NCBI GenBank assembly: GCA_037200965.1
Contig: JBBCGK010000001.1
Location: forward strand, 608,001-672,000
Direction of reading: 5' to 3'
Origin: a bacterium
GTDB taxonomy: Bacteria; Patescibacteriota; Minisyncoccia; Phycocordibacterales; Phycocordibacteraceae
Length of the DNA stretch: 64,000 nt
The position numbers and the translations under genes were made by a program. The number at the start of each line of letters is the position of its first letter. Positions within the stretch are counted from its first letter, which is position 1. This document shows positions 9,601 to 39,931 of the stretch, in pieces. The notes beneath the pieces were generated by a model. The model ran no database searches and was not told the DNA's origin. It saw only the letters and a list, made by a program, of their open reading frames with translations.

Positions 9601-11109
9601 TTACCGTGCAAACTCCACCACCCTGTTCTCCCGTATGATATTTATCTTTATTTCCCCCGGGTACTTGAGCTCTTCCTGGATACGCTTGGAGATATCCTTG
9701 GCGAGCCGGTGCATGGCGAGATCGGTAATCTTGCCCGGGTTCACGAACACGCGTATTTCGCGTCCGGCTTGTATGGCATAGACTTTCTCGACGCCTTCGA
9801 AGCCCCCCGCGATGCGCTCGAGTTCTCCGAGGCGCTCGAGATAGCGCTCTACCGTGTCCCTTCTCGCGCCGGGGCGTCCGCCGGATACTGCATCCGCCAC
9901 CTGGACGATGATCGATTCCGGCGTTTCATACGGATATTCCTCATGGTGCGACTGCATGGCTTGTATCACGCGCTTGTCGACGCCGAATTTCTCGAGAAGG
10001 CGGCGACCGATCTCCACGTGCGTGCCCTGCACTTCGTGGTCGACGGCCTTGCCGATGTCGTGGAGAAGGGCACCCGTTCGCGCGACGGCCGCGTCGGCCC
10101 CGAGCTCGGTCGCAAGCATCGAGGCGAGATGCGCCATTTCGACCGAGTGCGTGAGAACGTTCTGTCCGTAGCTTGTACGGAAATGGAGGCGGCCGAGAAG
10201 CGCGATGAGCTTAGGGTCAAGTCCGACGACCCCCGCTTCATACGCGGCCTTCTCGCCCTCCTGCTTCACTATCTCGGCGACTTCCGCCCGGGTCTTCTCG
10301 ACAGCCTCTTCTATCTTCGCGGGTTGGATGCGCCCGTCAGCGATAAGCTTCTCAAGCGCGATCTTCGCTATGTGGCGGCGCAGCGGATCGAAAGAGGAGA
10401 GGGTGATCTTATCCGGCGCATCGTCGATAAGGACATCGACGCCCGTCGCCCGCTCGAAGGCTTTTATATTGCGGCCTTCCTTGCCGATGATCTTGCCTTT
10501 CATCTCTTCTGAGGGGATGGTGACGGCAAGGCTCATCACCTCCGCGTTTACGGCATTCCCGAGGCGGTGTATTGCGGCAATCAGGATGCTGCGTGCCTTT
10601 TCCTCGAGCCGCTCGCGGCCGTGCGCTTCGAGCTTCTGGATGCGCGTAAGAATGGCCTCCTCCTGCCCGCTCTCTACCTCTTTTATCAAAGCCTCGCGCG
10701 CGTCCTTTTCCGTGAGGTGGCCAGCGCGTTCGAGTTCTTTGGTGCGTTTCTTTGAAAGTTCGTCGGCGACTTCCATCGCATTCTCGGCCTCGCGCTCGCG
10801 CTCGCGAACGTCTTCCGTCGCGGTATCGAGGTCGCGCTGGCGCTCGTCGAGGAATTCTTCTTTCTTCGCAAGCCGTTCCTCGCGTTCCCGGAGGGGATCG
10901 AGCATTTCGGTCTCAAGGGCCTCGGCCCTGGCCTGCGCCTCTTCGAGCACCTTCGCGGCCGCTTCCTTGGCGGCGAGGATCCGCTGCTTGATTTCCAATT
11001 CCAAAGAGCCCCGCTGTGAGAGCGAGACGAGGACGCGGAGCACGTAGCCGAACGCGATTCCCGCGACGCCCGAGAGCGCGAGCAGGGTGAGGATGATCTT
11101 GAGAGACAT
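9601..11109 (-). CDS. rny: ribonuclease Y
   Basis: N-terminal TM helix, coiled-coil, KH domain, HD domain LLHDIGKAVDHE. Confidence 0.85.
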   Translation of the reverse strand: MSLKIILTLLALSGVAGIAFGYVLRVLVSLSQRGSLELEIKQRILAAKEAAAKVLEEAQARAEALETEMLDPLREREERLAKKEEFLDERQRDLDTATEDVREREREAENAMEVADELSKKRTKELERAGHLTEKDAREALIKEVESGQEEAILTRIQKLEAHGRERLEEKARSILIAAIHRLGNAVNAEVMSLAVTIPSEEMKGKIIGKEGRNIKAFERATGVDVLIDDAPDKITLSSFDPLRRHIAKIALEKLIADGRIQPAKIEEAVEKTRAEVAEIVKQEGEKAAYEAGVVGLDPKLIALLGRLHFRTSYGQNVLTHSVEMAHLASMLATELGADAAVARTGALLHDIGKAVDHEVQGTHVEIGRRLLEKFGVDKRVIQAMQSHHEEYPYETPESIIVQVADAVSGGRPGARRDTVERYLERLGELERIAGGFEGVEKVYAIQAGREIRVFVNPGKITDLAMHRLAKDISKRIQEELKYPGEIKINIIRENRVVEFAR

Positions 11110-22714: not shown

Positions 22715-23854
22715 ATGAAAAGCGTTCGCGATATTCCGGTGCTTGAAAACGTACCGGTATTCGTGCGCTCGTCGCTCAATGTTCCGTTGGTAGATGGAAA
22801 GGTAGCGAACGCGTACCGCATCAAGCACGCGCTTCCCACCATCGAATTCCTCCGGAAAGAGAACGCGCGCATTGTTATCGGAAGCCATATCGGGGAAGCG
22901 GGAACCGAGACGCTCGAGCCCGTATACCTCGCGCTCAAGCAGATGCTCCCCGGCGTCTCGTTCTGCCCGGTCTCTACGGGTCCCCGGGCGCGCGAAGCGG
23001 TGCGGGCGCTTCTGCCGGGCGAAGTTCTCGTGCTTGAGAACCTGCGCAGGAATCGGGGGGAAGTGATGAACGACATGGCGTTTGCCGAAGCGCTTGCCGA
23101 ACTCACGGATGTCTTTGTCGAAGATGCGTTCGATACCTGCCATCGCGAGCACGCATCGATAGTAAGCCTTCCGACGCTCCTGCCTTCGTATGCGGGGCTT
23201 CAGCTCATCGAGGAGATCGCCGAACTCTCGAAGGCGCTCAAACCGAAGGCCCCGTCGCTCGCGGTCATCGGCGGCGCGAAGTTCGGCACCAAGGAGCCCG
23301 TGATCCGCAAGCTTCTCTCCCTCTACACGCACGTGTTTGTGGGCGGCGCGCTTGCGAACGATTTTCTCGCAGCTAAGGGCTATCCCGTGGGAAAGTCGCT
23401 CGTTTCGGGCGGAGATGCCGCCGCTACTAAAGAACTCTTGGTGGATAAGAAACTGGTGCTTCCGCTCGATTCGCTCGTCTGCAAATCCGGCGGCGCGAAA
23501 ACGCCCGGACAGGCACGTATCGCGGGACTTGATGACGTTCAGGAAGACGAAACCATCCTCGATCACGGCCCGAAGACGAATGAAATGCTCGCGAGATTGG
23601 CAGCCGGCGCGAAGACGATTCTCTGGAACGGGCCGCTCGGCCAGTATGAGGCGGGCTTCACGGAAGCGACGGATGCGCTTGCGGTCGCCATCGCCGACTC
23701 AGGCGCGGAGTCATACATCGGGGGAGGAGACACGGAAGCTGCCATCGACTCGCTCGGCCTCAACCGCCGATTCACGTTCATATCGACCGGCGGCGGCGCG
23801 ATGCTTTCGTATCTTGCGAAGGGGACGCTTCCGGGGATTGAGGCGCTGGGCTAG
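22715..23854 (+). CDS. pgk: phosphoglycerate kinase
   Basis: Full-length PGK: N-terminal substrate-binding basic patch, hinge, C-terminal ...STGGGAMLSYLAKGTLPGIEAL. Confidence 0.9.
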   Translation: MKSVRDIPVLENVPVFVRSSLNVPLVDGKVANAYRIKHALPTIEFLRKENARIVIGSHIGEAGTETLEPVYLALKQMLPGVSFCPVSTGPRAREAVRALLPGEVLVLENLRRNRGEVMNDMAFAEALAELTDVFVEDAFDTCHREHASIVSLPTLLPSYAGLQLIEEIAELSKALKPKAPSLAVIGGAKFGTKEPVIRKLLSLYTHVFVGGALANDFLAAKGYPVGKSLVSGGDAAATKELLVDKKLVLPLDSLVCKSGGAKTPGQARIAGLDDVQEDETILDHGPKTNEMLARLAAGAKTILWNGPLGQYEAGFTEATDALAVAIADSGAESYIGGGDTEAAIDSLGLNRRFTFISTGGGAMLSYLAKGTLPGIEALG

Positions 23855-24111
23855 GTTCCGTACAGGTTATGGTGCGTGTCGATGTCCGTGAGGACGATGG
23901 CGTCACCTACCATCTCGTAGATGAGTCGCCAATCGCCGGTCACGTTGATGCTTCGAAAGCCCGTCCATTCTCCCCGCAAGGGATGGTTGTTAAGTAGCGG
24001 GTTTTGAGGATCGGCCATAAACAGCCTAAGGCGCTCGACGAGCGCGCGGCGGATACCAGCCGGTAGGCGCGATACTCGTTTCTCAAACTGTCGTTTGCGG
24101 AGAACCTGCAT
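23851..24111 (-). CDS. RelE/StbE-family toxin (mRNA interferase)
   Basis: 86 aa; its stop overlaps the pgk stop convergently; follows the antitoxin gene on the minus strand. Confidence 0.65.
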   Translation of the reverse strand: MQVLRKRQFEKRVSRLPAGIRRALVERLRLFMADPQNPLLNNHPLRGEWTGFRSINVTGDWRLIYEMVGDAIVLTDIDTHHNLYGT

Positions 24112-24113
24112 GA

Positions 24114-24383
24114 CTATGCGCGTATGGCGCGCGCGAATTCTTCAAGGGACGAAGCGATGAAATGCTCCGGATGTTCGCGGTATTCGCGGCTAAGCGCTTC
24201 CCATTCGCGCAGCTTCTCCGGACGCGGTACAAGCGATACCTCGAACCGCCCGTCGGAAACGAACTGCGCGAGCTGCGCGTTCATAACGGTAGTAAGGGGA
24301 ATGCCGAGCTTCTGCGCGGTGCGCTTCGCGGCATCCCGGAGCTTTTTGTCAGTCTTGATGGTGATAGTTGTTTTCGTATTCAT
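24114..24383 (-). CDS. RelB/DinJ-family antitoxin
   Basis: 89 aa; 2-nt gap to the toxin gene. Confidence 0.6.
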   Translation of the reverse strand: MNTKTTITIKTDKKLRDAAKRTAQKLGIPLTTVMNAQLAQFVSDGRFEVSLVPRPEKLREWEALSREYREHPEHFIASSLEEFARAIRA

Positions 24384-24503
24384 ACCTATATACTACTTTG
24401 GGTATGAGCGTGCTGTCAATCCAATGCAGTTCAAATCTCGTCCGCGAGCCCGCGCACTTCACAAAACCGCCTATCTGGGCGGCTTTGTGTTTAAGAGAAC
24501 GGA

Positions 24504-24890
24504 ATGTTTAAACCAGGTATACTTTTAGTTATGGAAGACTGCATTTTCTGCAAAATAGTGAACCGAGAATCACCTGCCTCGGTAGTGTTTGAAGACGATA
24601 CCTCTATGGTAATTGAACCCATTGATCCTATTTCAAAAGGACATGTACTCGTGCTGCCCAAGAAACATTTTGTGAATATGCTCGATACCGACGACGAGAC
24701 GTTATCTCATCTTGCTGTCGTTTCCAAGAATGTCGGGCACACAGTGCTTGGAAAAAACAACGCTCACTCAATGAACCTTCTCCATGCCGCTGGGATGGAG
24801 GCGCAGCAATCCGTATTCCATCTCCACTTCCATATCGTGCCACGGTATGAGAATGATGGGCTGGATCTCTGGTTTAGGAACAGTCTCTAG
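24504..24890 (+). CDS. HIT-family hydrolase (paralogue A)
   Basis: Histidine triad HLHFHIVP; N-terminus MEDCIFCKIV shared with the HIT at 32203..32559. Start may be 24531. Confidence 0.7.
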   Translation: MFKPGILLVMEDCIFCKIVNRESPASVVFEDDTSMVIEPIDPISKGHVLVLPKKHFVNMLDTDDETLSHLAVVSKNVGHTVLGKNNAHSMNLLHAAGMEAQQSVFHLHFHIVPRYENDGLDLWFRNSL

Positions 24891-24991
24891 GATTAGAGAG
24901 GATACTGGAATCGAACCATTCTCTCAGAAAGCACAGTAAGCTGAGCTAACACAATTTCGGTATAAGAATATAGCCCCTACACTCTCTTATC

Positions 24992-25504
24992 TTGGTTCCA
25001 ACAGCGTCTACGAGCTCGCGCACTCTGGACGATAGTGGAACTGCTATAGTTCCTGATATGGAAATTCCACAGATTAAGATGATTTACGCTTATCCGTTAG
25101 ACGAGGACAGGCGACGGTTTTTCTCTCAACAAAACTTAGGCCGGTATCCCTCCGTTGAAGAGGTCAGGGATACGACTTCTCACTGGAGAAATGTATGGAA
25201 TGAAACCAATAGAGACAACAGGATCGTCTTAACGTTACAAGAGTTAACGAAGAGAGTGCCAACGCGGAGCTTAGAGTGTTTCATTATCGGAGGAGGCATT
25301 AAAGCCATGTCTACCCCCTTCATTATTTCAGTCAGAAAAAGAAATGGGGAAGAGCGCTCAGATCAAGACTTCATCGAGACGCTAATTCACGAAGCAGCGC
25401 ATATTTTCGTATCAGACGTTCCGGCCTACTTCGACTCTCTTCGCGAGAAATATTCCGGGAGCCGCTATCTGCCCGGAATCATATACTCATTTACGCGCTA
25501 TTAG
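24992..25504 (+). CDS. hypothetical protein with HExxH motif (possible small metallopeptidase)
   Basis: LIHEAAHIF motif; AT-rich codon usage unlike the core genes. Confidence 0.3.
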   Translation: MVPTASTSSRTLDDSGTAIVPDMEIPQIKMIYAYPLDEDRRRFFSQQNLGRYPSVEEVRDTTSHWRNVWNETNRDNRIVLTLQELTKRVPTRSLECFIIGGGIKAMSTPFIISVRKRNGEERSDQDFIETLIHEAAHIFVSDVPAYFDSLREKYSGSRYLPGIIYSFTRY

Positions 25505-25690
25505 AGAAACTATACTTAGACCTATTTAATTCTCGCCCAAGTGACTTTGCTAACAGTGACCTGCCGGACAGTTATATCCGAGCGATAGAAATCGTTAAGC
25601 AAGAGGGTTACGAAAAGCTGATTGAAGAATACCAGTCCTTCGTGTAGTAGTTCCGAGGTTGTCCGTAAGGTCGCGACCCTCCCATCTGTT

Positions 25691-25770
25691 TCACAAATAT
25701 GCCCGAATCTTCCCCGCATTCCCCTCGAAATCCATTTTGTCCCCTTCCGCTTGGCCTGGGAATATCCAGA
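25691..25770 (-). pseudogene. 3'-terminal fragment (26 codons) of a HIT gene
   Basis: ~93% DNA identity to 32203-32275; translates IWIFPGQAEGDKMDFEGNAGKIRAYL* versus VWIFPGQAEGDKMDFEGNAERIRARL*. Confidence 0.7.
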
Positions 25771-25775
25771 TATTC

Positions 25776-25848
25776 AATCGGTGGCAACGCGGTAGTAGCG
25801 TATCTTGCATGGGAAACGCTTCCGGGGACTGAGGCGCTGGAATCCTAG
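25776..25848 (+). pseudogene. diverged 3'-terminal fragment of a pgk gene
   Basis: Translates ...SIGGNAVVAYLAWETLPGTEALES* versus the pgk C-terminus ISTGGGAMLSYLAKGTLPGIEALG*; ~75% DNA identity. Confidence 0.6.
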
Positions 25849-26615
25849 AGAGCCTTCCACATAAAGGCATGCATATTTTTAAACAGATTAGCGATATCCT
25901 TGTTTTCGATAACAACCGCAGATAAGTCCCGGAGACTTATAAGCGCGACCTTTTCGTTGAAAACAAGAACGTCGACATTGGACGTAAACCATTCGGGGAG
26001 CCGTTTGTCTGATTTATTTTCATATCCGTTCTTCTCGCGCAGAGCTCGCAGTTTTTTGTAGGTTTTAGCGCTTGCGATAAACAAATCCTTCGCCTTAAAC
26101 GCGTGATCGCTATTTGTCTTGTCGAAATCGCCGTATTCTGCTTCGGTGAAGTTTTCGAAGAAAATATCGGCGGGGAAGATGGAATACGTATCGCCGAGCG
26201 TTTTAAACAGTTCCTCGTAAATATTCTTGATCGCACGCTTTCCTTCGAAGAAGCCGACCTTGGGCTTGTTCGTCGCGCGTTCATATATCTTGCTCATGAC
26301 GGCGGCAGTCGAGTCGAATGCTAGAAGCTCCTTCCTAAGATTTGCGGCGACGGTCTTCGGATCGACTGCCGCGTACAGCGTGCGCTTGCCGATAGGTATC
26401 CGAGTAATGAAACCCTTTTTGAGCAGAAGATCCAGATATTCGTAGCAGGTAGCGCGCCGCACGTCCGCTTGGCGGACTATATCCGCGACTCCCATGCGGC
26501 TTTTCCCGAGAAGCGACACGTAAATCACCGCAGCCTTATCCGGCAAACCGATTCGTTCCAACTCCTTTATGAACGGGATATGTTCCATAAGTTCATATAA
26601 GCTGACTTGGAACAA
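25845..26615 (-). CDS. TrmB-family HTH transcriptional regulator (paralogue 3)
   Basis: HTH KAAVIYVSLLGKSRMGVADIVRQADVRRATCYEYLDLL. Confidence 0.6.
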   Translation of the reverse strand: MFQVSLYELMEHIPFIKELERIGLPDKAAVIYVSLLGKSRMGVADIVRQADVRRATCYEYLDLLLKKGFITRIPIGKRTLYAAVDPKTVAANLRKELLAFDSTAAVMSKIYERATNKPKVGFFEGKRAIKNIYEELFKTLGDTYSIFPADIFFENFTEAEYGDFDKTNSDHAFKAKDLFIASAKTYKKLRALREKNGYENKSDKRLPEWFTSNVDVLVFNEKVALISLRDLSAVVIENKDIANLFKNMHAFMWKAL

Positions 26616-26720
26616 ATGTCAACGAAAGCGACATATTTTACCAGTACCCTCTAAACCACCCTTCACTTTATAAGTCTATTAATAAATATAAGCGTTATTC
26701 CAGACACAAGTACCCATTTA

Positions 26721-27245
26721 TTGAATACTGGGCGGGCTGGTATGGCGCTAAAATCAAAGACAACTCTGCAAACCAAACGCGGCATTTTCGAAGTCGGATA
26801 TTACGTTGTAGACGGGAATCCTTATGTTTCTTTCCGCTACGGGGATGTTTCCCAGGGCAGACCAATAGTGCGATTACAGTCGGCTTGCCTTTTCGGGGAG
26901 GCTTTCGGTTCGCTTGAGTGCGAGTGTGGCGCGCAACTTGCCAAGGCTCTGGACGCCATTGTTAGCCGCGGGGCGGGTCTTGTGCTCTATGCCTATGCGG
27001 AAGGTCGTGGCGCAGGGCTTGAGAAAAAGATAGAAGCTATGGAGATTCAAAGGACGACCGGATGCAATACAGTCGAAGCTTTTGACTCGCTTGGTCTTGA
27101 GAAGTCCGACTACCGGGATTATCAGGCTGAGGTGAACATCCTCACCGAGTTAGGCACAAGCCTCCATATCTGCTTGTTTTCGAAAAATCCAGCTCGATAT
27201 CAAGCGCTCAAAGACGCAGGCTTCGATGTAGATCCATATGAGTAG
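26721..27245 (+). CDS. GTP cyclohydrolase II-like protein (RibA/ToxB-like)
   Basis: Zinc-ligand motif RLQSACLFGEAFGSLECECGAQL with the three conserved Cys; ...YAEGRGAGL... matches the GCH II core. Start may be ATG 26742. Confidence 0.7.
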   Translation: MNTGRAGMALKSKTTLQTKRGIFEVGYYVVDGNPYVSFRYGDVSQGRPIVRLQSACLFGEAFGSLECECGAQLAKALDAIVSRGAGLVLYAYAEGRGAGLEKKIEAMEIQRTTGCNTVEAFDSLGLEKSDYRDYQAEVNILTELGTSLHICLFSKNPARYQALKDAGFDVDPYE

Positions 27246-28140
27246 CTCGTCTGAGCTTATGTATCGTTGGCTTCGCGTATCTCCTACCGGAGACGGATAT
27301 ATCGAGCCCGATTATTACGATCAGCTTCTCAGAAAGTATATCTTTGATGGTAAAGAGGATACCGAGTACTTCCGAGAACATCTTGCAAAAGCACCTTCTC
27401 ATTCAGCATTTCTTGAGCTTGGCCCCGGGACCGGACGAGCGACAAATATACTATTCGCATCGGTTCCGGACATACATTCGCTTACGCTCGTTGATTTAAG
27501 CAGCCGTATGCTTAGTAGCTGCAAACAAGTTTTCACCCGCAAAGAATGCATTTCTTATGTCGTTTCCGATTCCATAGATTTCCTGTTGTCAGTGCAGTCG
27601 TCGTACGACTATATCTATAGCCTGTGGAGTCTTTCTCACTCCATACACAAGAATCTTGAAGACTTGGGAAAAGAAGACGGAAAAGCAAAAGTACGAGAGG
27701 CGCTCTTAAAAATGGTACGGGAGAATCTCAACCGGAACGGCTCTTTATTCCTGATACATTTCGATTCTTCCTCTCCCGAGCAGGAAATATCTATTCGGCA
27801 AAGGCGGCGCGATTCCCGTGACCGGAAATTGTTTGCAGATGTCTCCAAACAAAGTCCCTCTAAGGAAATACTCGACGAGTGCCTTGAAGAATTAAGGCGC
27901 TCGGGTGAGATCTGTTTTGAATGTGAGAGGCATGTAGGTACAGCGCTCGAATTCAGTTCGCTCGACGAAGCGCTCGAGTATTATCTTAATTTCCATATGG
28001 CTTCGTATTTCAATACCTCAAGTTCGATCGACGACATCTTGAAGGAGCTTTCTCAGGATTTACTGGAACACCAAGGGAGTGATGGAAAGATACGGATCGT
28101 TCCCGGTTGCTTCATCTACAAAGCAAGTAAGCCTGGTTAA
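27238..28140 (+). CDS. class I SAM-dependent methyltransferase
   Basis: Motif I LELGPGTGRAT; its ATG overlaps the stop of the GCH II-like gene by 8 nt. Confidence 0.65.
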   Translation: MSSSSELMYRWLRVSPTGDGYIEPDYYDQLLRKYIFDGKEDTEYFREHLAKAPSHSAFLELGPGTGRATNILFASVPDIHSLTLVDLSSRMLSSCKQVFTRKECISYVVSDSIDFLLSVQSSYDYIYSLWSLSHSIHKNLEDLGKEDGKAKVREALLKMVRENLNRNGSLFLIHFDSSSPEQEISIRQRRRDSRDRKLFADVSKQSPSKEILDECLEELRRSGEICFECERHVGTALEFSSLDEALEYYLNFHMASYFNTSSSIDDILKELSQDLLEHQGSDGKIRIVPGCFIYKASKPG

Positions 28141-28176
28141 ATGTTGGTTGCCAGAAAGCTCCCTATATAAAAATCA

Positions 28177-28998
28177 CTAAGATACTTGGCTATTCATCAG
28201 ATCGCGCAAAAGCTCGTTCGCATCTATAAGCTGCGAATGCTCCTGCATAAATTCAAAGGCGGAAAGAATCATTTTTTGTATCTCCGAGTTCTTGACTTCG
28301 ACAATCAATCCTTCGCTTAAGGAGAAGAGATATAAGGAATCCTTAAATATCCAGCACTGGCCGCCATGCCTGAAGTACTTTGGATCAATAACATTGACTC
28401 TCGCGGTGCGTCCTTCGAAATCTTTCACCCATTGTATTCCTAGAGAACGCGCTTGTTCCTCAAGCCACCCGATTGGCAAGACAGCTTCGGTAATCGTACG
28501 GCCCTTCTTTATATCGCGGTTTATTCGGTTTGTTTCGGAAACGGTGAACAGGGTATTCCAACTCTTGGTCGCGCGGTCACCTTGGAAGCCCCAGAAGAAC
28601 CGTTGGTTCTTGTTCGCTTCAAAGAGCTCAAGCATGACCTTCCTAATTGCTTCTTTTCCCCGATAGATACATACCGTTGAGTCAGCGCGACCGTGAACCT
28701 GTTGGTTTCCTTCGGGTATTTGCAGCAAGAAACGCTTGAAATCGTATAGTGCCTGATCAATAGTATCTCCGCTATGCAATTGCCACCGCTTGCGTCCTTT
28801 GGCGATGCGCGAAACGGCCAGCCCTCGTTTATGCAGATTCGCCAAAATCGCATAAATGGCAGAGCGGGAGATTCCCGTCTGGCGAGTCAGCTTTAAGGGC
28901 GTATCCGCACCGTCGCGAAGCGCCAAGAGAATCTTCCTTTCCTTGATTGAGAGGCCGAGTATTCGCAGATCATCGTGAAGTGCCATACGGCAAAACAT
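28177..28998 (-). CDS. TrmB-family HTH transcriptional regulator (paralogue 4)
   Basis: HTH KERKILLALRDGADTPLKLTRQTGISRSAIYAILANL. Confidence 0.55.
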   Translation of the reverse strand: MFCRMALHDDLRILGLSIKERKILLALRDGADTPLKLTRQTGISRSAIYAILANLHKRGLAVSRIAKGRKRWQLHSGDTIDQALYDFKRFLLQIPEGNQQVHGRADSTVCIYRGKEAIRKVMLELFEANKNQRFFWGFQGDRATKSWNTLFTVSETNRINRDIKKGRTITEAVLPIGWLEEQARSLGIQWVKDFEGRTARVNVIDPKYFRHGGQCWIFKDSLYLFSLSEGLIVEVKNSEIQKMILSAFEFMQEHSQLIDANELLRDLMNSQVS

Positions 28999-29169
28999 AG
29001 CAAAAGGTATATAACCTGTCCACTTTCTTAGACAGATATATAAAGCATAAAAACCCTTATATACAGCTTATTTCCAGTATTACTCAACTTAGAGAATACC
29101 TTACTATACTGTCAATGTCTTTAGGATCATTCTTATAGAGGGAACTAGAACTTTATATGGGAGACCGCT

Positions 29170-30318
29170 ATGGCTTGCGAAACGAACGAAGTGCCGCAGG
29201 AAGTGACCGCGATCGATCGTTGGATTGACCACGTATTGCACGGAGAAAAGGATACTGCGATTCCAACGTTACTTGGTCGGGAAGTTCCACCTCTTTTGTC
29301 GTGGATAGTGCGGGGCGGATGCGCGATACAGTGCCGCCACTGCATCTTTCCTCACGAAGGCCCGAAAACCTTCGGCGTGCAAACGGGCGAGGAAGCGCTT
29401 CTCGGCATTCTCCGCCAGTTGTCCGGTTCGCGCCACCTCATTCACGAAGGAAGGCAGCTACTTCCGTGGCAGGTACCGATCTTGGCGGCTGCAGGCCGCG
29501 CAGGACACGGAGTATCGCTTATCAATAACGGACAATATGCAGCGCCGAATATGCTGGCGCTATGCGAGCGAGAGGGGCTCGCAATCGACGCGCTTGACGT
29601 GTCGGTCGACGGTACGAAAGATATCCACAATGGACAGCGCGCGAGCAATAATGCCTGGGACATCGCAATGAAAGGGATTGTGCATGCCAAGCACATACTC
29701 AAGACCGATGGCAAACTTACTTCTCTCTTCACGCTCACCACGCTCAATCACGCGCACTTAGCCGAAACGGGAGAGATGCTCACGCAGGTGGTCGATGAAT
29801 GGCACGTGACGACGATGTCGTTACGGCCGGGGATCGAGCACCTGCGGGCAGGCGATCGCGAACTCGCCTTAGCGCTTGAACAATTGCTCGGCGGCAACTT
29901 CGCGAAACCAGTGTTCCTGCGTACCTATTCTCTCGACGATTTTGTCGCTCTGCTTGGAATTCTCGGAAAAGAAACGGCAAATAGGGTTCTCAGGAACGCG
30001 CTGGTGACTTATAACGCCATCGTACTCGATATCGGAATACCCCTGTACTTCTATCCTAAGTCCCTGCAGGTGAATGAAACGTTAGTGATCGACGCGGATG
30101 GGTGGTGGCGTCTGCCGTTTTGCATCCATCACTCGCTTGCGGAACTGCGGGCGGGAGAGGATGAGATGGGCAAGGATATTTCGCATTTCAATGTCGTCCC
30201 GGTACTGCCGTGCGTGGATGTCCCAACTCTCCATGCCAAGGCCGCATCGAGATGGTGGGTCAGTATAGGCCGGGATTGTTTATCGCTTGAGCGCCAGGCG
30301 CTCGAAGCGTTTCTCTAA
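29170..30318 (+). CDS. radical SAM protein (CAIQCRHC)
   Basis: CxxxCxxC motif GGCAIQCRHCIFP ~60 residues from the N-terminus; 382 aa; AT-rich promoter region upstream. Confidence 0.65.
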   Translation: MACETNEVPQEVTAIDRWIDHVLHGEKDTAIPTLLGREVPPLLSWIVRGGCAIQCRHCIFPHEGPKTFGVQTGEEALLGILRQLSGSRHLIHEGRQLLPWQVPILAAAGRAGHGVSLINNGQYAAPNMLALCEREGLAIDALDVSVDGTKDIHNGQRASNNAWDIAMKGIVHAKHILKTDGKLTSLFTLTTLNHAHLAETGEMLTQVVDEWHVTTMSLRPGIEHLRAGDRELALALEQLLGGNFAKPVFLRTYSLDDFVALLGILGKETANRVLRNALVTYNAIVLDIGIPLYFYPKSLQVNETLVIDADGWWRLPFCIHHSLAELRAGEDEMGKDISHFNVVPVLPCVDVPTLHAKAASRWWVSIGRDCLSLERQALEAFL

Positions 30319-30341
30319 CAACCGGAAAGGAGGTGAAAACT

Positions 30342-30461
30342 ATGTCCGGAGCCAATACCGGTTCCGCTGGCGTGGATGCGAAAGCACGTCCGCCAGTGCA
30401 ATCGTCAGGGGCGAATACCGGTTCGACGGGCGTAACGACGCCGCGTTTGCCGCGTAAGTAG
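30342..30461 (+). CDS. 39-aa repeat-containing peptide ORF immediately downstream of the radical SAM gene (candidate precursor peptide)
   Basis: Perfect SD AAAGGAGG 8 nt before ATG, 23 nt after the rSAM stop. MSGANTGSAGVDAKARPPVQSSGANTGSTGVTTPRLPRK carries SGANTGS(A/T)GV twice. Confidence 0.35.
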   Translation: MSGANTGSAGVDAKARPPVQSSGANTGSTGVTTPRLPRK

Positions 30462-30471
30462 CCTCGGTGAC

Positions 30472-30520
30472 TACAGAGAGCCCGTTCACGCTTTTGATTC
30501 GCGTGGGCGGGCTCTTCTCT
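30472..30520 (+). terminator. structured hairpin with T-rich tail after the peptide ORF
   Basis: gagagcccg...cgggctctt followed by ctcttttat. Confidence 0.35.
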
Positions 30521-30738
30521 TTTATACACTAAATGTGATTCTCGATGTTTCTTTAGAATCGATCGGTCGCCGTTCGCGTAGCCGAGACGGGTCTAACAAT
30601 CGAACGATAGCGGCGCAATGCTCAAGTCTCTTGCGGCTGAATGTTTTCAGCGATTGAAGCATTGAGAGACTAAACAGATTACTCTATTCATAAAGACGCA
30701 TATACCACCTCGTAAAGTCACCCAATACCGCTTTGGTA

Positions 30739-31554
30739 TCAACGACGAATATGAAAATCCTTGGATATACGGCGTTTCCACGCGGCGGCTTTCCCAGGGT
30801 CTTTAGCAATTTTTACCTTTGATGTAACTTCGTGATCTAACTTCTTCAACTTATCCTTGGCGCGCTCAAGGTCGGTTTCCGTTTTAAAGAGAAGTTCGAC
30901 TGCCTTTCGAGCTTTGGGATTAAAACGCACTTCAATCACCCATTCGTGGATTACGGCAATAAACACTTCTTGACGAACTTTCGGCGAGTACGATACCTCA
31001 ACGTTAGAGAATGCGAGCTCCCGGGTTGCGAGCTTGTCGAGCGCCGAAGAGGAGCCGATGAGAAGATAGGCTCTTCTTCCTTTTGCTCCAAGGAGCATAT
31101 CGTGGCTTTTGTCGCTATCGCCACGCAGTACACTCGACCAATTATGCGGATTAAAGAGGTAAAGGTGCTGGCGGTGAGGAACACCCTTTTCAATTACTGA
31201 AAACAGATGGGACCATATCCGATCCATAGCAGTAAGACCATGAATGGTAAGCGTGATCTCTTCTCCGCGTTCAAGCTGACTGAAGTCGCCGAGGATGGAA
31301 CTGTTTTTATATTCGACAAGCTGGCGAAGCTGCTTTAACCAATGTTCGCTTACCGATACGGCAGAACGGTAGACGATAACCTTCTCTTGCGCTCTCAGCT
31401 TTCTAAGCGCCCTATAAAAACCCTGCTTCGTGCAGGCGTGCTTCCTCCTCAGGCCTTTAAGGAGCTCAGTAGTCGTAACCGCTCCTTTTTGAAGTACAAA
31501 AGTAAGGACTGAATCTTCAAGGCGGCTGCCTAACAGTTGCATAGCAGTAAACAA
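30739..31554 (-). CDS. TrmB-like HTH regulator (paralogue 5, more divergent)
   Basis: N-terminal wHTH LTFVLQKGAVTTTELLKGLRRK... with a C-terminal TrmB-like effector domain. Confidence 0.45.
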   Translation of the reverse strand: MFTAMQLLGSRLEDSVLTFVLQKGAVTTTELLKGLRRKHACTKQGFYRALRKLRAQEKVIVYRSAVSVSEHWLKQLRQLVEYKNSSILGDFSQLERGEEITLTIHGLTAMDRIWSHLFSVIEKGVPHRQHLYLFNPHNWSSVLRGDSDKSHDMLLGAKGRRAYLLIGSSSALDKLATRELAFSNVEVSYSPKVRQEVFIAVIHEWVIEVRFNPKARKAVELLFKTETDLERAKDKLKKLDHEVTSKVKIAKDPGKAAAWKRRISKDFHIRR

Positions 31555-31643
31555 CCCGTTTACTATACACCCATTTTGGCCCAGATGCTTGAGCTTGGCA
31601 AAAGGCGGGTTCTAAATGTACGCGGACGGAAGAACCGTTCTCT

Positions 31644-32081
31644 TTGGAGGAACGAACTATGTGTTTTTGTGGCTATGATCCGAAAATGGGCGAGAGCGTC
31701 CGGGTGTTTGCTGAGGGGTTGAATCGATCCCTCAGCGCCAAGGCCGAGCGTCTCGGTCTTACCATGTCCGCGCAGATGCAATCGGAAGCGCTCGAGCTGA
31801 ACGCGCTGATCGAACTCCTGAACCAGAAGCTCGCGAACTCGGAAGACTCTCGACGACATGAGCTGGAAGGACTGCTCGGCATCGTGTACCTCATTCGTGC
31901 TCTTATGCAGCCGGAACGAAACGAGATATCCGTTCGCAGCGACTTCGAACTCTCAGTTCGCACGCGGGCAGTTCGACTGGACGAGAGCATGATTCGCTTC
32001 GAACAAATCTTCGAATCCGACCAGGGTGATTTTCTCAGCGAGCGGCTTCGTCGTGCGGTTGCTGCCGCAATTGAGGCTTAA
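31644..32081 (+). CDS. hypothetical protein
   Basis: 145-aa ORF at the distal end of the island. Confidence 0.35.
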   Translation: MEERTMCFCGYDPKMGESVRVFAEGLNRSLSAKAERLGLTMSAQMQSEALELNALIELLNQKLANSEDSRRHELEGLLGIVYLIRALMQPERNEISVRSDFELSVRTRAVRLDESMIRFEQIFESDQGDFLSERLRRAVAAAIEA

Positions 32082-32202
32082 TTTCAGCCTGTCCCTTCTT
32101 GAGAACCCACGTTCTTCTGCTGCTATGCGGTGGAGAACGGAGGGTTCTTCTTTTCGTTTTGGGTTCCGACAGCGCCTGCAGGCTCGCTGAGCTTTACTGG
32201 TT

Positions 32203-32559
32203 CTACAAACGCGCCCGAATCCTCTCCGCATTCCCCTCGAAATCCATTTTGTCCCCTTCCGCTTGGCCCGGGAATATCCAGACATGGGCATGCGCCACTT
32301 CCTCGCCGACGCTCTTCGAGATAATCCAATCGGTATTGAAAGCCTTTTGCTGCGCTCTCGCGACTTTCCGGACAACTTCGAAATAGCGGCCGATGTCGGG
32401 AACGTCCCATATCCAGCGGTAGTGCTGTTTCGGTATGACCTGCACGTGGCCTGGCGTTTCCGGATGGATATCGATAAACGCGAGGAAGAAATCGTCCTCA
32501 TATACCTTGTATGAAGGAATCTCGCCCCGGACGAGCTTGCAGAACACGCAGTCTTCCAT
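32203..32559 (-). CDS. HIT-family hydrolase (paralogue B)
   Basis: HAHVWIFP histidine triad; start MEDCVFCKLV at 32559 (the 176-aa ORF is over-extended). Confidence 0.7.
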   Translation of the reverse strand: MEDCVFCKLVRGEIPSYKVYEDDFFLAFIDIHPETPGHVQVIPKQHYRWIWDVPDIGRYFEVVRKVARAQQKAFNTDWIISKSVGEEVAHAHVWIFPGQAEGDKMDFEGNAERIRARL

Positions 32560-32605
32560 GAAGGAAATATAGCGCACGGAGGAATTCTGGTACAATCCAC
32601 CAACG

Positions 32606-34336
32606 ATGTTTCCGCTCCATGGTCCTTTGGACGAACGAATACGGGAAATACTCTCCGAGTATGACGACCTGACCGCCGCGCTGCTCTCGCGCAGGGGCAT
32701 TACGACCAAGAAAGAGGCCGAAACCTTCCTCAACCCGAGCTATGAGGAGCATCTCCACGATCCGCTCCTTATAAAGAACATGCCGGGGGCGGCGAAGATG
32801 CTTGCGGAAGCGATTGCCTCGGGCGAGCGCATCTGCGTATGGAGCGATTATGACTGCGACGGCATTCCGGGCGGCGTCCTTCTCCATGATTTCCTCAAGA
32901 AAGCGGGCGCGAACTTCGAGAACTATATCCCGCACCGGCATGACGAAGGATACGGGCTCAATATTCCGGGGCTCGAGAAGCTTGCGGGGAGCGGCGTGAA
33001 GCTCGTCGTGACGGTCGATTCCGGCATCACGGATGTCGAACAGGTCGCGCGCGCGAAAGAGCTCGGCATGAAAGTCATCGTGACCGACCACCACCTGCCG
33101 GGCCCCGCGCTTCCTCCGGCTGATTTCGTTATCGACCAGAAGCAGGAAGGAGAAACGTCGCCGTACCAGGAACTGTGCGGCGCGGGAGTCGCGTGGAAAC
33201 TCGCCTGCGCGACGCTTGCGGTCGCTCCCGGGCTTCGGGAGAAGATTCCTGTCGGCTGGGAGAAGTGGCTTCTCGATATGGCGGGGCTCGCGACGATCGC
33301 CGACATGGTTCCGCTTACGGGCGAGAACCGGGTTATCGCGAAATACGGACTCCTGGTCATGCGAAAATCGCCGCGCATTGGCCTGCAAAGACTTTGCCGC
33401 GTCGCCCGCGTCGAGCAGCGCTCGATCACCGAAGGCGATGTGGCGTTCATGCTCGCGCCGAGGATAAACGCGGCGTCGAGAATGCTCGATCCGCGCGACG
33501 CGTTCGACCTTCTCACGACAAGCGATGAGATAGAGGCGGACGAGCTCGCGAAGAAGCTCGAGAAAGCGAACCGGGCACGTCGCGCGTCCGCCGGAGCGAT
33601 AACGCGGGAGGTGCACGACCGGATTGACGAGCGCCTTTCGGTGCCGGACGCCGAACTCCCTGCCGTGATCGCGATCGGGAATCCTTCGTGGCGCCCGGCC
33701 CTTCTGGGGCTCGTCGCAAGCGGCGTCGTCGAGGAGTACGCGCGCCCGGTATTTCTTTGGGGGAGGGAAGCGGACGGCCGCCTCAAGGGTTCGTGCCGCA
33801 CGGACGGGACGGTGAACGTGGTCGAGCTCATGGAAGCCGCGAAGGATACCTTCGTCGAATTCGGCGGCCATGCCGCGTCCGGCGGATTCACCGTCCGCGA
33901 CGACGCGGTTTTTTATCTTGAGGAACGCCTTTCGGAAGCGAAATCGAAACTGAAGTCCGCGGAAAGTGCCGACGCGTTCTCGCACGCGGACGCCGAGATC
34001 GCTCCGCATGAAGTCACGGCAGCCCTTCTGTCGAAATTAGAGAAGCTCGCGCCCTTCGGAGAGGGAAACCCAAAACCGCTCTTCCATTTCCGCGACGTGC
34101 TCCTTGACGAAGCGTCGCGCTTCGGGAAAGGAGAGGAGCACCTGCGCCTCCTTATCATGAGCGACGGCTTCAAGCCGCTCGAAGCGATCTGTTTCTTCGC
34201 GAAGCGCGAACTTGGGGCGAAGTGCTTCGAGTTTTCGGAAGGGGACCGCGTGCATGTGCTCGCGCATCTCGAGCGAAATCAGTTTTCGAAATACGGTTCC
34301 GTGCGGCTGCGGTTGGTTGACGTAAAGAGGGTTTAA
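32606..34336 (+). CDS. recJ: single-stranded-DNA-specific exonuclease RecJ
   Basis: DHH motifs (DYDCDG, VTVDSG, VTDHH) and DHHA1 domain; 576 aa. Confidence 0.85.
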   Translation: MFPLHGPLDERIREILSEYDDLTAALLSRRGITTKKEAETFLNPSYEEHLHDPLLIKNMPGAAKMLAEAIASGERICVWSDYDCDGIPGGVLLHDFLKKAGANFENYIPHRHDEGYGLNIPGLEKLAGSGVKLVVTVDSGITDVEQVARAKELGMKVIVTDHHLPGPALPPADFVIDQKQEGETSPYQELCGAGVAWKLACATLAVAPGLREKIPVGWEKWLLDMAGLATIADMVPLTGENRVIAKYGLLVMRKSPRIGLQRLCRVARVEQRSITEGDVAFMLAPRINAASRMLDPRDAFDLLTTSDEIEADELAKKLEKANRARRASAGAITREVHDRIDERLSVPDAELPAVIAIGNPSWRPALLGLVASGVVEEYARPVFLWGREADGRLKGSCRTDGTVNVVELMEAAKDTFVEFGGHAASGGFTVRDDAVFYLEERLSEAKSKLKSAESADAFSHADAEIAPHEVTAALLSKLEKLAPFGEGNPKPLFHFRDVLLDEASRFGKGEEHLRLLIMSDGFKPLEAICFFAKRELGAKCFEFSEGDRVHVLAHLERNQFSKYGSVRLRLVDVKRV

Positions 34337-38984: not shown

Positions 38985-39931
38985 CGCACTAACATATCGA
39001 ACACTCTTGCAGTCGAGCATACGGCGTCTTGAGCTCGATGCCAAGGTGCGGCCGTTCGTGGTTGTATTCGCGCAGAAAGGCCTGATACTGGGCATTGAGG
39101 TCCTCCATTGAAGCGGGCTTTTTCATGAAGCGCCAGAAGAACTCCTCCTCGTCGGTGCGGAATGACCGCTCGATGACCGCGTTCTCATTCGGGTTCGCCT
39201 TGTGGATGAAATGATGCTTCCAGCCGAGTTCCCCAGTCACGAAGGCGCGGAAGCGGCTCTGGAACTCAAGGCCGTTGTCGGTCTGCACGAAATCCGGTAC
39301 GAACGGCAGCGAAACCGTCCGCAGGGCCTCGATGGAGAAGTCCTGCACGAGCTCGGGGAAGATGACGCCAGCTTTGTATCGGCTCCAAATATCAATGACG
39401 GCATACAGATACAGGGTATGCGGGAGCCCCGACAGCTCGGGCGTCACGTACTTCACATCCATCTGAAGCTTCCCGGGCGCGGTCACGTTCTTGAGATACA
39501 TATGCGTGGTCTCCTGATATCTCGGCCGTCGGTATGACGCGCCTTCCAGTATATGACCTTTCGCTTTGAGGAAGCGATGGATGGTCGCCGGGTGCTCGGA
39601 GAGGCCGAGCAGCACTTTGAGCTTGCGCGCCCCGTATCCTTTCTCTTCGCGCAGGCGCAAGAGCGCCTCAGCCCGCTCTCCCGAGAGCGTCCTGCGGCGA
39701 AGACGCTTCGGTCTTGTCGACTTGCGGACAAGCTGCCGCGTCGAGAGCGCAAACCGGCTCCGGATGCTCCGGGCTCGCTTCTTCCAGAACACCACCGTGC
39801 CCGGAGATATGCCGAGTGTCCGTGCGGTTTCGCGCACCTTTCCTCCCGACTTCTTCAATTTCCTGATGATTTCCCTGGGTTCTTTGCGCATATCCTCCTT
39901 AGTATTAGGGAGTGTTCGATATGCAGTGCGA
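38985..39931 (-). mobile_element. IS481-family insertion sequence
   Basis: Imperfect terminal IRs tcgcactaacatatcgaacactc (38985-) and gggagtgttcgatatgcagtgcga (-39931); single tpase ORF 38989..39891. Confidence 0.75.
38989..39891 (-). CDS. IS481-family DDE transposase
   Basis: N-terminal HTH plus rve integrase core (DNG...E). Confidence 0.8.
   Translation of the reverse strand: MRKEPREIIRKLKKSGGKVRETARTLGISPGTVVFWKKRARSIRSRFALSTRQLVRKSTRPKRLRRRTLSGERAEALLRLREEKGYGARKLKVLLGLSEHPATIHRFLKAKGHILEGASYRRPRYQETTHMYLKNVTAPGKLQMDVKYVTPELSGLPHTLYLYAVIDIWSRYKAGVIFPELVQDFSIEALRTVSLPFVPDFVQTDNGLEFQSRFRAFVTGELGWKHHFIHKANPNENAVIERSFRTDEEEFFWRFMKKPASMEDLNAQYQAFLREYNHERPHLGIELKTPYARLQECSIC

Follow-up and report, generated by a model that had tools for sequence, protein, structure and literature searches.

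A Scar of Joined pgk and HIT Gene Tails between Two Cargoes in a Patescibacterial Genome

Introduction

In the stretch of DNA analysed here (64,000 nucleotides, hereafter the window), an intact pgk and an intact HIT gene are separated by 8.3 kb, and within this interval the 3' ends of both genes appear a second time, truncated and placed back to back. The locus thus raises the question of what kind of event can strand the tails of two genes in the middle of the DNA that separates them. An earlier note on this DNA had read the two tails as the scar of a recombination junction, and the analysis reported here re-examines that reading together with its alternatives. In what follows, the intact genes are called live and their truncated copies ghosts; the DNA between live pgk and the ghosts is referred to as cargo A, and that between the ghosts and live HIT as cargo B. 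All the features of the locus are listed in Table 1.

The window lies in a contig of 960 kb (JBBCBH010010897.1) from the metagenome-assembled genome GCA_037975565.1. The named best matches of the pgk and HIT proteins belong to Parcubacteria, Paceibacterota, and Minisyncoccia, which places the window in the Patescibacteria. The DNA between the two live genes has a GC content of 0.46-0.50, whereas the window as a whole has 0.56 and the flanking pgk and recJ about 0.6. The conserved right flank holds a comEC-type competence gene (Pfam Competence, at approximately 35.3-36.8 kb of the window), and a T2SSE/PilB-type ATPase is encoded upstream of tpi. The sole mobile-element gene seen near the locus is a transposase-like ORF (38989-39891, minus strand; weak HTH_Tnp_1 and rve_3 matches) located about 6.7 kb to the right of HIT, which is missing from the syntenic regions of the relatives L007 and L010.

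Table 1. Genes, ghosts, and junction of the pgk-HIT interval (positions in the window).
Feature	Position	Strand	Description
Live pgk	22715-23854	+	379 aa; Pfam PGK 1.8e-98; 74-80% aa identity to relatives P0002-P0008
YafQ/RelE-like toxin	23851-24111	-	Cargo A; Pfam YafQ_toxin 2.5e-10; stop overlaps pgk stop as CTAG
RelB/DinJ-like antitoxin	24114-24383	-	Cargo A; TIGR02384 RelB_DinJ 5.7e-7, below cut-off
HIT2	24531-24890	+	Cargo A; intact canonical HIT paralogue; Pfam HIT 2.9e-23
unkA	25058-25647	+	Cargo A; frameshifted conserved hypothetical; homologues of 191-203 aa cover both frames
HIT ghost	25686-25773	-	Part of codon 92, codons 93-118, stop TGA (25691-25693), about 5 nt past the stop
Illegitimate junction	25773-25774		HIT-internal base fused to pgk-internal base; read directly from the sequence
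pgk ghost	25774-25848	+	Codons 357-379, one additional codon, stop TAG (25846-25848)
TrmB-family regulator	25845-26615	-	Cargo B, first gene
GTP cyclohydrolase II	26721-27245	+	Cargo B
SAM methyltransferase	27238-28140	+	Cargo B
TrmB/wHTH	28177-28998	-	Cargo B
Radical SAM	29170-30318	+	Cargo B
Unknown	30739-31554	-	Cargo B
Unknown	31644-32081	+	Cargo B
Live HIT	32203-32559	-	118 aa, AHAHVW-type; Pfam HIT 6.4e-16; family of 344 homologues

Two Gene Tails Joined without a Spacer

When the segment 25401-26000 was compared with the window by self-BLAST, both similarities turned out to be significant. The HIT ghost, on the minus strand, matches 32197-32285 with 89.9% identity over 89 columns (E 2.8e-28), while the best-conserved 42 nt of the pgk ghost (25799-25840) match 23808-23849 with 85.7% identity (E 3.4e-8). 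A repeat search delimited the two pairs as direct repeats: D1, of 86 nt and 90% identity (25688-25773 and 32200-32285), whose live copy is formed by the final 26 codons of live HIT, up to 32285; and D2, of 67 nt and 76% identity (25774-25840 and 23783-23849), whose live copy lies in the last 23-24 codons of pgk (23783-23854). The earlier note was right that the last 26 codons of HIT (codons 93-118) are copied here, and only its figure of about 93% has to be lowered to 90%; its description of a diverged copy of the pgk C-terminus agrees with the 76% found over the 67 nt of D2.

The HIT ghost has lost the 5' part of the gene together with its start codon. Its translation is NIWIFPGQAEGDKMDFEGNAGKIRAYL, against HVWIFPGQAEGDKMDFEGNAERIRARL in live HIT, and that of the pgk ghost is SIGGNAVVAYLAWETLPGTEALES, against STGGGAMLSYLAKGTLPGIEALG in live pgk, all four being followed by a stop codon. 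Both ghosts are in frame and end at the homologous place, with the stop of the pgk ghost one codon later, where CTAG forms its overlap with the stop of the TrmB gene that opens cargo B. The changes in the HIT ghost fall at variable positions. In the pgk ghost, by contrast, the invariant motif STGGGAM, found in all the relatives examined, reads SIGGNAV. These changes of invariant residues, along with the lack of a conserved ORF, show that constraint has been lost in the pgk ghost. The HIT ghost ends in TGA instead of TAG, which was considered as a possible sign of selection and rejected, given that a single 1-nt deletion accounts for the change and makes it uninformative. Since they are truncated, startless, and significantly similar to functional genes, the sequences at 25686-25848 are confirmed as a scar of gene remnants.

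The scar comprises about 160 bp in all, with the truncated ends of the two ghosts facing each other. They abut without any spacer at 25773/25774, where HIT codon 92/93 meets pgk codon 357, and the microhomology at this point amounts to at most about 4 nt (ATAT, 25770-25773). Neither the HIT nor the pgk homology continues across the join, and beyond the stop codon of each ghost the homology ends within about 5 nt. A tblastx search of 23800-32300 for further ghost fragments revealed nothing beyond the N-terminal similarity of the two full-length HIT genes. The join sits in a perfect 7-nt inverted repeat, GAATATC-CA-GATATTC (25760-25775), partly made by the fusion itself; this repeat is probably due to chance, as five of its seven nucleotides already lie within the HIT ghost.

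On the plus strand, the four gene tails follow each other in an interleaved order: pgk 3' (23783-23849), HIT 3' (25688-25773), pgk 3' (25774-25840), and HIT 3' (32200-32285). Only a tandem or circular junction, in which the end of a unit is fused to its start (a y/x junction), gives such an order, and this is the arrangement found at 25773/25774, where a HIT-internal unit end meets a pgk-internal unit start. The earlier note had already pointed to a tandem or circular order of this type, and the signature of HIT 3' followed by pgk 3' bears it out. It had also offered, as another possibility, successive integrations each bringing a replacement 3' end. This proposal is not supported, as two independent integrations, each duplicating its own target, would nest the repeats (pgk 3', pgk 3', HIT 3', HIT 3') instead of interleaving them; in addition, no integrase or transposase is encoded between pgk and HIT, and the longest perfect run shared by the pgk repeats is 13 nt. 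The locus is not a true duplication throughout, because no similarity was detected between cargo A and cargo B by blastn, tblastx, or repeat search.

A Hypervariable Slot between Convergent pgk and HIT

Relatives of this bacterium were used to reconstruct the state of the locus before the event. In L007-L009 and L013/L014 the site is empty: pgk and HIT are convergent, their stops overlap by 4 nt, and recJ follows. These relatives confirm that the arrangement described in the earlier note, with the two genes facing each other as neighbours, is ancestral.

Other relatives carry a single cargo at this place. L010 and L011 show the order pgk-YafQ-antitoxin-HIT-recJ and have the same pgk/toxin junction as the window, GGCTAGGTTCCGTACAG. 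Their toxin and antitoxin are 66% and 78% identical in amino acids to those of the window, in line with the values for pgk (78%), tpi (76%), and recJ (86%), and this matching divergence indicates that their pgk-toxin junction is orthologous to that of the window. In L012, a TrmB gene precedes pgk as in the left flank of the window, and an orthologue of the first gene of cargo B lies convergent to pgk and within 6 nt of it; this gene is 76% identical to its counterpart in the window, pgk 80%, and the TrmB that precedes it 78%. The L012 contig stops inside the first B gene, so that a single gene of cargo B is seen beside pgk there. The pgk of L012 ends in ...ALES, like the ghost, while live pgk and that of L010 end in ...ALG. 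The coincidence of ES and stop in L012 and the ghost could be fortuitous, since the codons differ (AGT TGA versus TCC TAG). More distant relatives, at 65% pgk identity, hold other, unrelated single genes in the slot.

A comparison of the slot in the window with that of L007, L013, L010, L012, L045, and L047 shows a single agreement, between the empty slots of L007 and L013, for which reason the slot can be described as hypervariable. The backbone tpi-pgk...HIT-recJ-RNaseH-comEC-SOD is kept wherever the contigs extend that far, and no ghost repeats or similar scars were found in the loci of the relatives. A pgk search of genome contigs returned only one Saccharibacteria fragment and one archaeon.

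Variation is also seen in the genes around the slot. The recJ-adjacent HIT is represented among close relatives by two types that look unrelated, namely the 118-aa AHAHVW type, in which Val takes the place of the first His in the HxHxH triad (window, L013), and a canonical type of 137-147 aa (L010 2669-3082, L007 11137-11559, and L047), and the HIT gene at this locus seems to have been swapped itself. The tpi-pgk spacer varies as well: the window has radical SAM and TrmB genes in it, L045 an aldo-keto reductase, while L010, L013, and L047 have no gene there. In L007, this spacer (7553-10004) holds a diversity-generating retroelement with bAvd and reverse transcriptase, accompanied by a repeat pair of 118 nt and 84% identity (8048-8165 and 8481-8598). 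The palindrome CTAG recurs as the stop overlap of pgk with three different convergent partners, which are the YafQ toxin (23851-23854), the TrmB gene at the ghost (25845-25848), and HIT in L007 (11137-11140); genome compaction and a clue to the way in which cargo is inserted are the candidate readings of this recurrence.

The Two Cargoes

Cargo A (23855-25687, 1.8 kb) consists of a toxin-antitoxin pair, a second HIT gene, and a frameshifted gene. HIT2 and bits of its intergenic flanks form a patch of about 0.5 kb (24520-25012) that is 88-91% identical at the nucleotide level to the metagenome contigs L041-L044 (blastn: 90.7% over 410 nt and 88.6% over 88 nt), the remainder of these contigs being unrelated; in them, the HIT2-like gene is flanked by genes for a glycosyltransferase and a peptidase S9. 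The patch looks like the product of a recent horizontal transfer of a single gene, and it shows that short foreign DNA does get into the pgk/HIT slot. Contig L041 carries 103 nt that are missing from the HIT2 patch of the window. Downstream of HIT2, a tRNA-like T-arm motif, GGTTCGATTCC (24907-24917, minus strand), was evaluated as an att or tRNA remnant and discarded: according to ARAGORN the window contains no tRNA, and a comparison with Rfam brought up nothing even at E ≤ 1.

The last gene of cargo A, unkA, has suffered one frameshift, with the switch of frame occurring between 25453 and 25471; its sequence is identical in the Logan contig L040, and its homologues are found in unrelated housekeeping contexts. 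The orphan C-terminal coding fragment to which the earlier note had drawn attention (25505-25647) is the tail of this frameshifted gene.

Cargo B (25849-32199, 6.3 kb) comprises seven genes, annotated with Pfam and NCBIfam. A metagenome search with the first of them yielded 18 loci, 13 of which keep the divergent TrmB-GTP cyclohydrolase II pair (25845-27245), with TrmB identities of 50-58% in amino acids (loci listed: L016, L018-L020, L022-L026, L029, L030, and L032). None of those loci has pgk or HIT beside the pair. Given the varied neighbourhoods, it can be suggested that TrmB and the short GTP cyclohydrolase II constitute a regulated functional module in Patescibacteria. Directly downstream of the radical-SAM gene there is a 42-aa ORF (30333-30461, plus strand), called by no gene caller, which contains the internal repeat SGANTGSAGV / SGANTGSTGV, encoded by a DNA repeat (30344-30373 and 30404-30433). 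The product of this ORF might serve the radical-SAM enzyme as a precursor peptide.

Divergence of the Ghosts and Relatedness of the Parents

The pgk ghost differs from its live tail at 16 of 67 positions and the HIT ghost, which looks younger, at 9 of 86, a borderline difference (Fisher p = 0.03) from which the earlier note's proposal of different donors or ages could be drawn. Such donors or ages are not required, since the difference stems from a perfect block of 43 nt within the HIT repeat (25714-25756 and 32226-32268), a run so long that its probability by permutation is 0.013. If the block is set aside, 9 of the remaining 43 positions of the HIT ghost are changed (about 21%), a proportion similar to that of the pgk ghost. 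Instead of a difference in age, the block may reflect constraint or a gene conversion by live HIT. At this level of significance, the greater divergence of the pgk ghost would call for one extra assumption, either gene conversion or two events.

Four relatives were used to polarise the differences between the two pgk tails. Thirteen of the 16 are derived in the ghost and three in the live gene, so most of the divergence of the pgk ghost, the sites in the invariant STGGGAM included, is decay that followed the event. At four sites the ghost and live tails carry the same base, one that is seen in none of the four relatives, and these shared derived sites place the common ancestor of the two pgk tails more recently than their split from any sampled relative. 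This points to parents that were probably conspecific or nearly so.

A Proposed History of the Locus

Taken together, these data are best explained by a non-coding scar that was probably left when a single illegitimate join connected HIT codon 92/93 of one copy of the locus with pgk codon 357 of another. Since the interiors of the two cargoes are unrelated, and each cargo-pgk junction is orthologous to that of a different relative, the simplest history is one in which two haplotypes met and were concatenated. According to this proposal, two haplotypes would have existed among close relatives, alpha (pgk-toxin/antitoxin...-HIT) and beta (pgk-TrmB/GTP-cyclohydrolase-II cluster-HIT), and copies of both would have come together in one cell. 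A single illegitimate join, together with one homologous exchange in a gene of the flank, would then have given the arrangement pgk-A-[HIT tail/pgk tail]-B-HIT, in which live pgk and HIT are left intact and two truncated tails are stranded in the middle of the locus. The likeliest route would be that the cell took up DNA of a conspecific strain, which was then integrated by homology-facilitated illegitimate recombination (HFIR), and the same product could also arise by Campbell-type integration of a circularised fragment or by unequal exchange. The stranded tails would have drifted afterwards, strongly in the case of the pgk tail, and the 43-nt perfect block common to the two HIT tails suggests a later gene conversion. 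The HIT repeats of 86 bp, with this block, enclose the pgk ghost and cargo B; a recombination between them would remove 6.5 kb while keeping HIT intact, so that cargo B could be lost again. The pgk repeats, with their short longest perfect run, would be a far poorer substrate.

We infer a single event, conspecific parents, and transformation as the route. The databases yielded no alpha or beta haplotype with a single cargo from the same species, their 90%-identity clusters of pgk and HIT having one member each, and the parents are consequently reconstructed and not observed. A search for the breakpoint of the homologous exchange in live pgk, based on sliding-window identity against L012, L010, L007, and L013, gave no signal, these relatives being too distant for the purpose (about 70-74% identity in nucleotides); with no breakpoint resolvable in pgk, donor and recipient are indistinguishable.

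Alternative Explanations

A plain tandem duplication within one genome, running from pgk codon 357 to HIT codon 92 and followed by a turnover that left A in one copy and B in the other, is unlikely, even though it yields the same y/x topology and the shared derived sites, together with differences mostly derived in the ghost, would fit a decayed self-copy. A duplication of this kind has to contend with two cargoes that show no detectable similarity, and with pgk-toxin-antitoxin and ghost-pgk-TrmB junctions that are orthologous to single-cargo junctions in different relatives. Differential loss would have had to recreate both junctions precisely, which implies at least three events as compared with one.

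It could also be imagined that in this lineage of Patescibacteria the pgk/HIT stop junction is a dedicated integrase-free cassette slot, in which cargo is gained serially by transformation and illegitimate joining, and the tails, above all the HIT repeat with its perhaps gene-converted 43-nt core, serve as handles for its reversible shedding and regaining, and this we consider quite doubtful. If it were true, the shedding and regaining of cassettes would always restore intact pgk and HIT.

The idea that one or two elements integrated site-specifically at the 3' end of pgk, HIT, or both, bringing a replacement 3' end, so that the ghosts are remnants of attL and attR, draws on several features of the locus: direct repeats of gene 3' ends bound each cargo, both live genes are intact, as happens with integrase-mediated islands, and the HIT repeat includes the 43-nt identical block. 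Nevertheless, this is very unlikely. The repeats are interleaved instead of nested, with the HIT repeats enclosing the pgk ghost, and those of pgk are only 76% identical. No integrase, recombinase, or transposase was detected among the ORFs of 23851-32081 (Pfam for all ORFs, NCBIfam and PHROGs for the poorly annotated ones), which leaves no recombinase gene between pgk and HIT. The cargoes lack similarity to plasmids, phages, or IMG/VR viral contigs and have no notable PHROG match, and the relatives with other cargo at the slot show no repeats.

An assembly chimera, in which a metagenome assembler fused the strain variants pgk-A-HIT and pgk-B-HIT, is extremely improbable. The contigs do derive from metagenomes, the Logan contig L002 terminates inside the HIT ghost (25743), and there are clusters of mismatches at the ends of contigs of GCA_015655515.1. 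However, an assembler cannot produce a HIT-internal to pgk-internal join with at most 4 nt in common, and the ghosts are diverged copies and not duplicates of the live ends. Moreover, the scar is present in two separate GenBank assemblies, GCA_015655515.1 (contig JAATEX010000061.1) and GCA_037975565.1, which shows that it is not an artefact of assembly. The contig of the former that spans window 35560-25565 (L004) has no mismatch across the scar and is identical to the window in 25629-33295; besides one site in recJ, its mismatches are confined to its last 64 nt. A second contig of the same assembly (L039) spans window 23199-25531, and cargo A is 100% identical in Logan contigs from two different SRA runs. 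The mismatch clusters of L004 and L039 (five and nine mismatches; window 25573-25628 and 23205-23326, respectively) lie within about 130 nt of the contig ends and could be assembly-end noise or strain variation that broke the contigs.

Finally, the scar might be part of a genuine small gene or of a structured RNA, and two ORFs spanning the junction (25691-25915, minus strand, 74 aa; 25699-25848, plus strand, 49 aa) could be adduced for this proposal, which is nevertheless effectively refuted. Among 1.84 billion representative proteins no homologue of the 74-aa ORF was found, and Pfam matches neither of the two; PGAP locus tags run consecutively and leave no gene on the scar, no Rfam match occurs in it, and its folding is no better than that of shuffles (z +1.3 and +0.8). 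No terminator-like site was found in 25648-25844.

Implications of the Scar

If two copies of the locus were indeed fused by one illegitimate join, the scar is a fossil that records the gain of a cargo of several kb in an uncultivated bacterium with a reduced genome, at a site with no obvious mobile-element machinery. It supports the view that the genomes of Patescibacteria change by recombination with DNA that the cells have taken up, and it identifies the pgk/HIT slot as a place where insertions are naturally tolerated. It is an ordinary kind of genome-rearrangement footprint, and represents neither a new mechanism nor a new functional element.

Comparison with Known Systems

The closest parallel to the proposed route is HFIR, in which linear DNA is integrated through one homologous and one illegitimate end, and which is known in the natural transformation of Acinetobacter baylyi, Streptococcus pneumoniae, and Pseudomonas stutzeri (PMC3240628). 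Saccharibacteria have been shown to be naturally competent and to recombine DNA homologously (PMC10633639), and in Patescibacteria competence genes are reported to be prevalent and most of the detected gene-transfer events to be intra-phylum (PMC12455944). As in HFIR, the history proposed here would combine one homologous exchange with one illegitimate join, and several kb were added beside a homologous anchor by an insert that carries no recombinase gene; the join at 25773/25774 is indeed illegitimate, with between none and a few nucleotides of microhomology. There are also clear differences. Classical HFIR products usually delete recipient DNA (PMC3240628), while no recipient deletion is visible here, and the event is deduced from its fossil product in a lineage whose competence is putative. 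Furthermore, both sides of the join are homologous to the chromosome (the pgk and HIT tails), with the result that two alleles of one locus would stand in tandem.

The joints of tandem duplications and of Campbell-type integrations share with the scar the y/x connection of a HIT-internal end to a pgk-internal start, and the repeats that can pop a copy out. Contrary to those joints, only the ends of the units (about 70-90 bp) are alike and the interiors are unrelated, which would make this locus a hetero-allelic tandem. Integrase islands and prophages inserted in gene 3' ends likewise leave intact targets and displaced truncated 3' ends, with direct repeats bounding low-GC cargo. They differ from the locus described here in that the latter has no integrase, its repeats are interleaved and diverged, and neither mobile-element genes nor similarity to such elements are found in it.

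In flexible (or replacement) genomic islands, variable cassettes located between conserved flanking genes are swapped by homologous recombination within populations. The locus resembles these islands in its fixed slot, delimited by pgk and HIT/recJ, which holds a different cargo in almost every sampled lineage. It departs from them in that two cassettes stand in series through an illegitimate join, neither of them having replaced the other.
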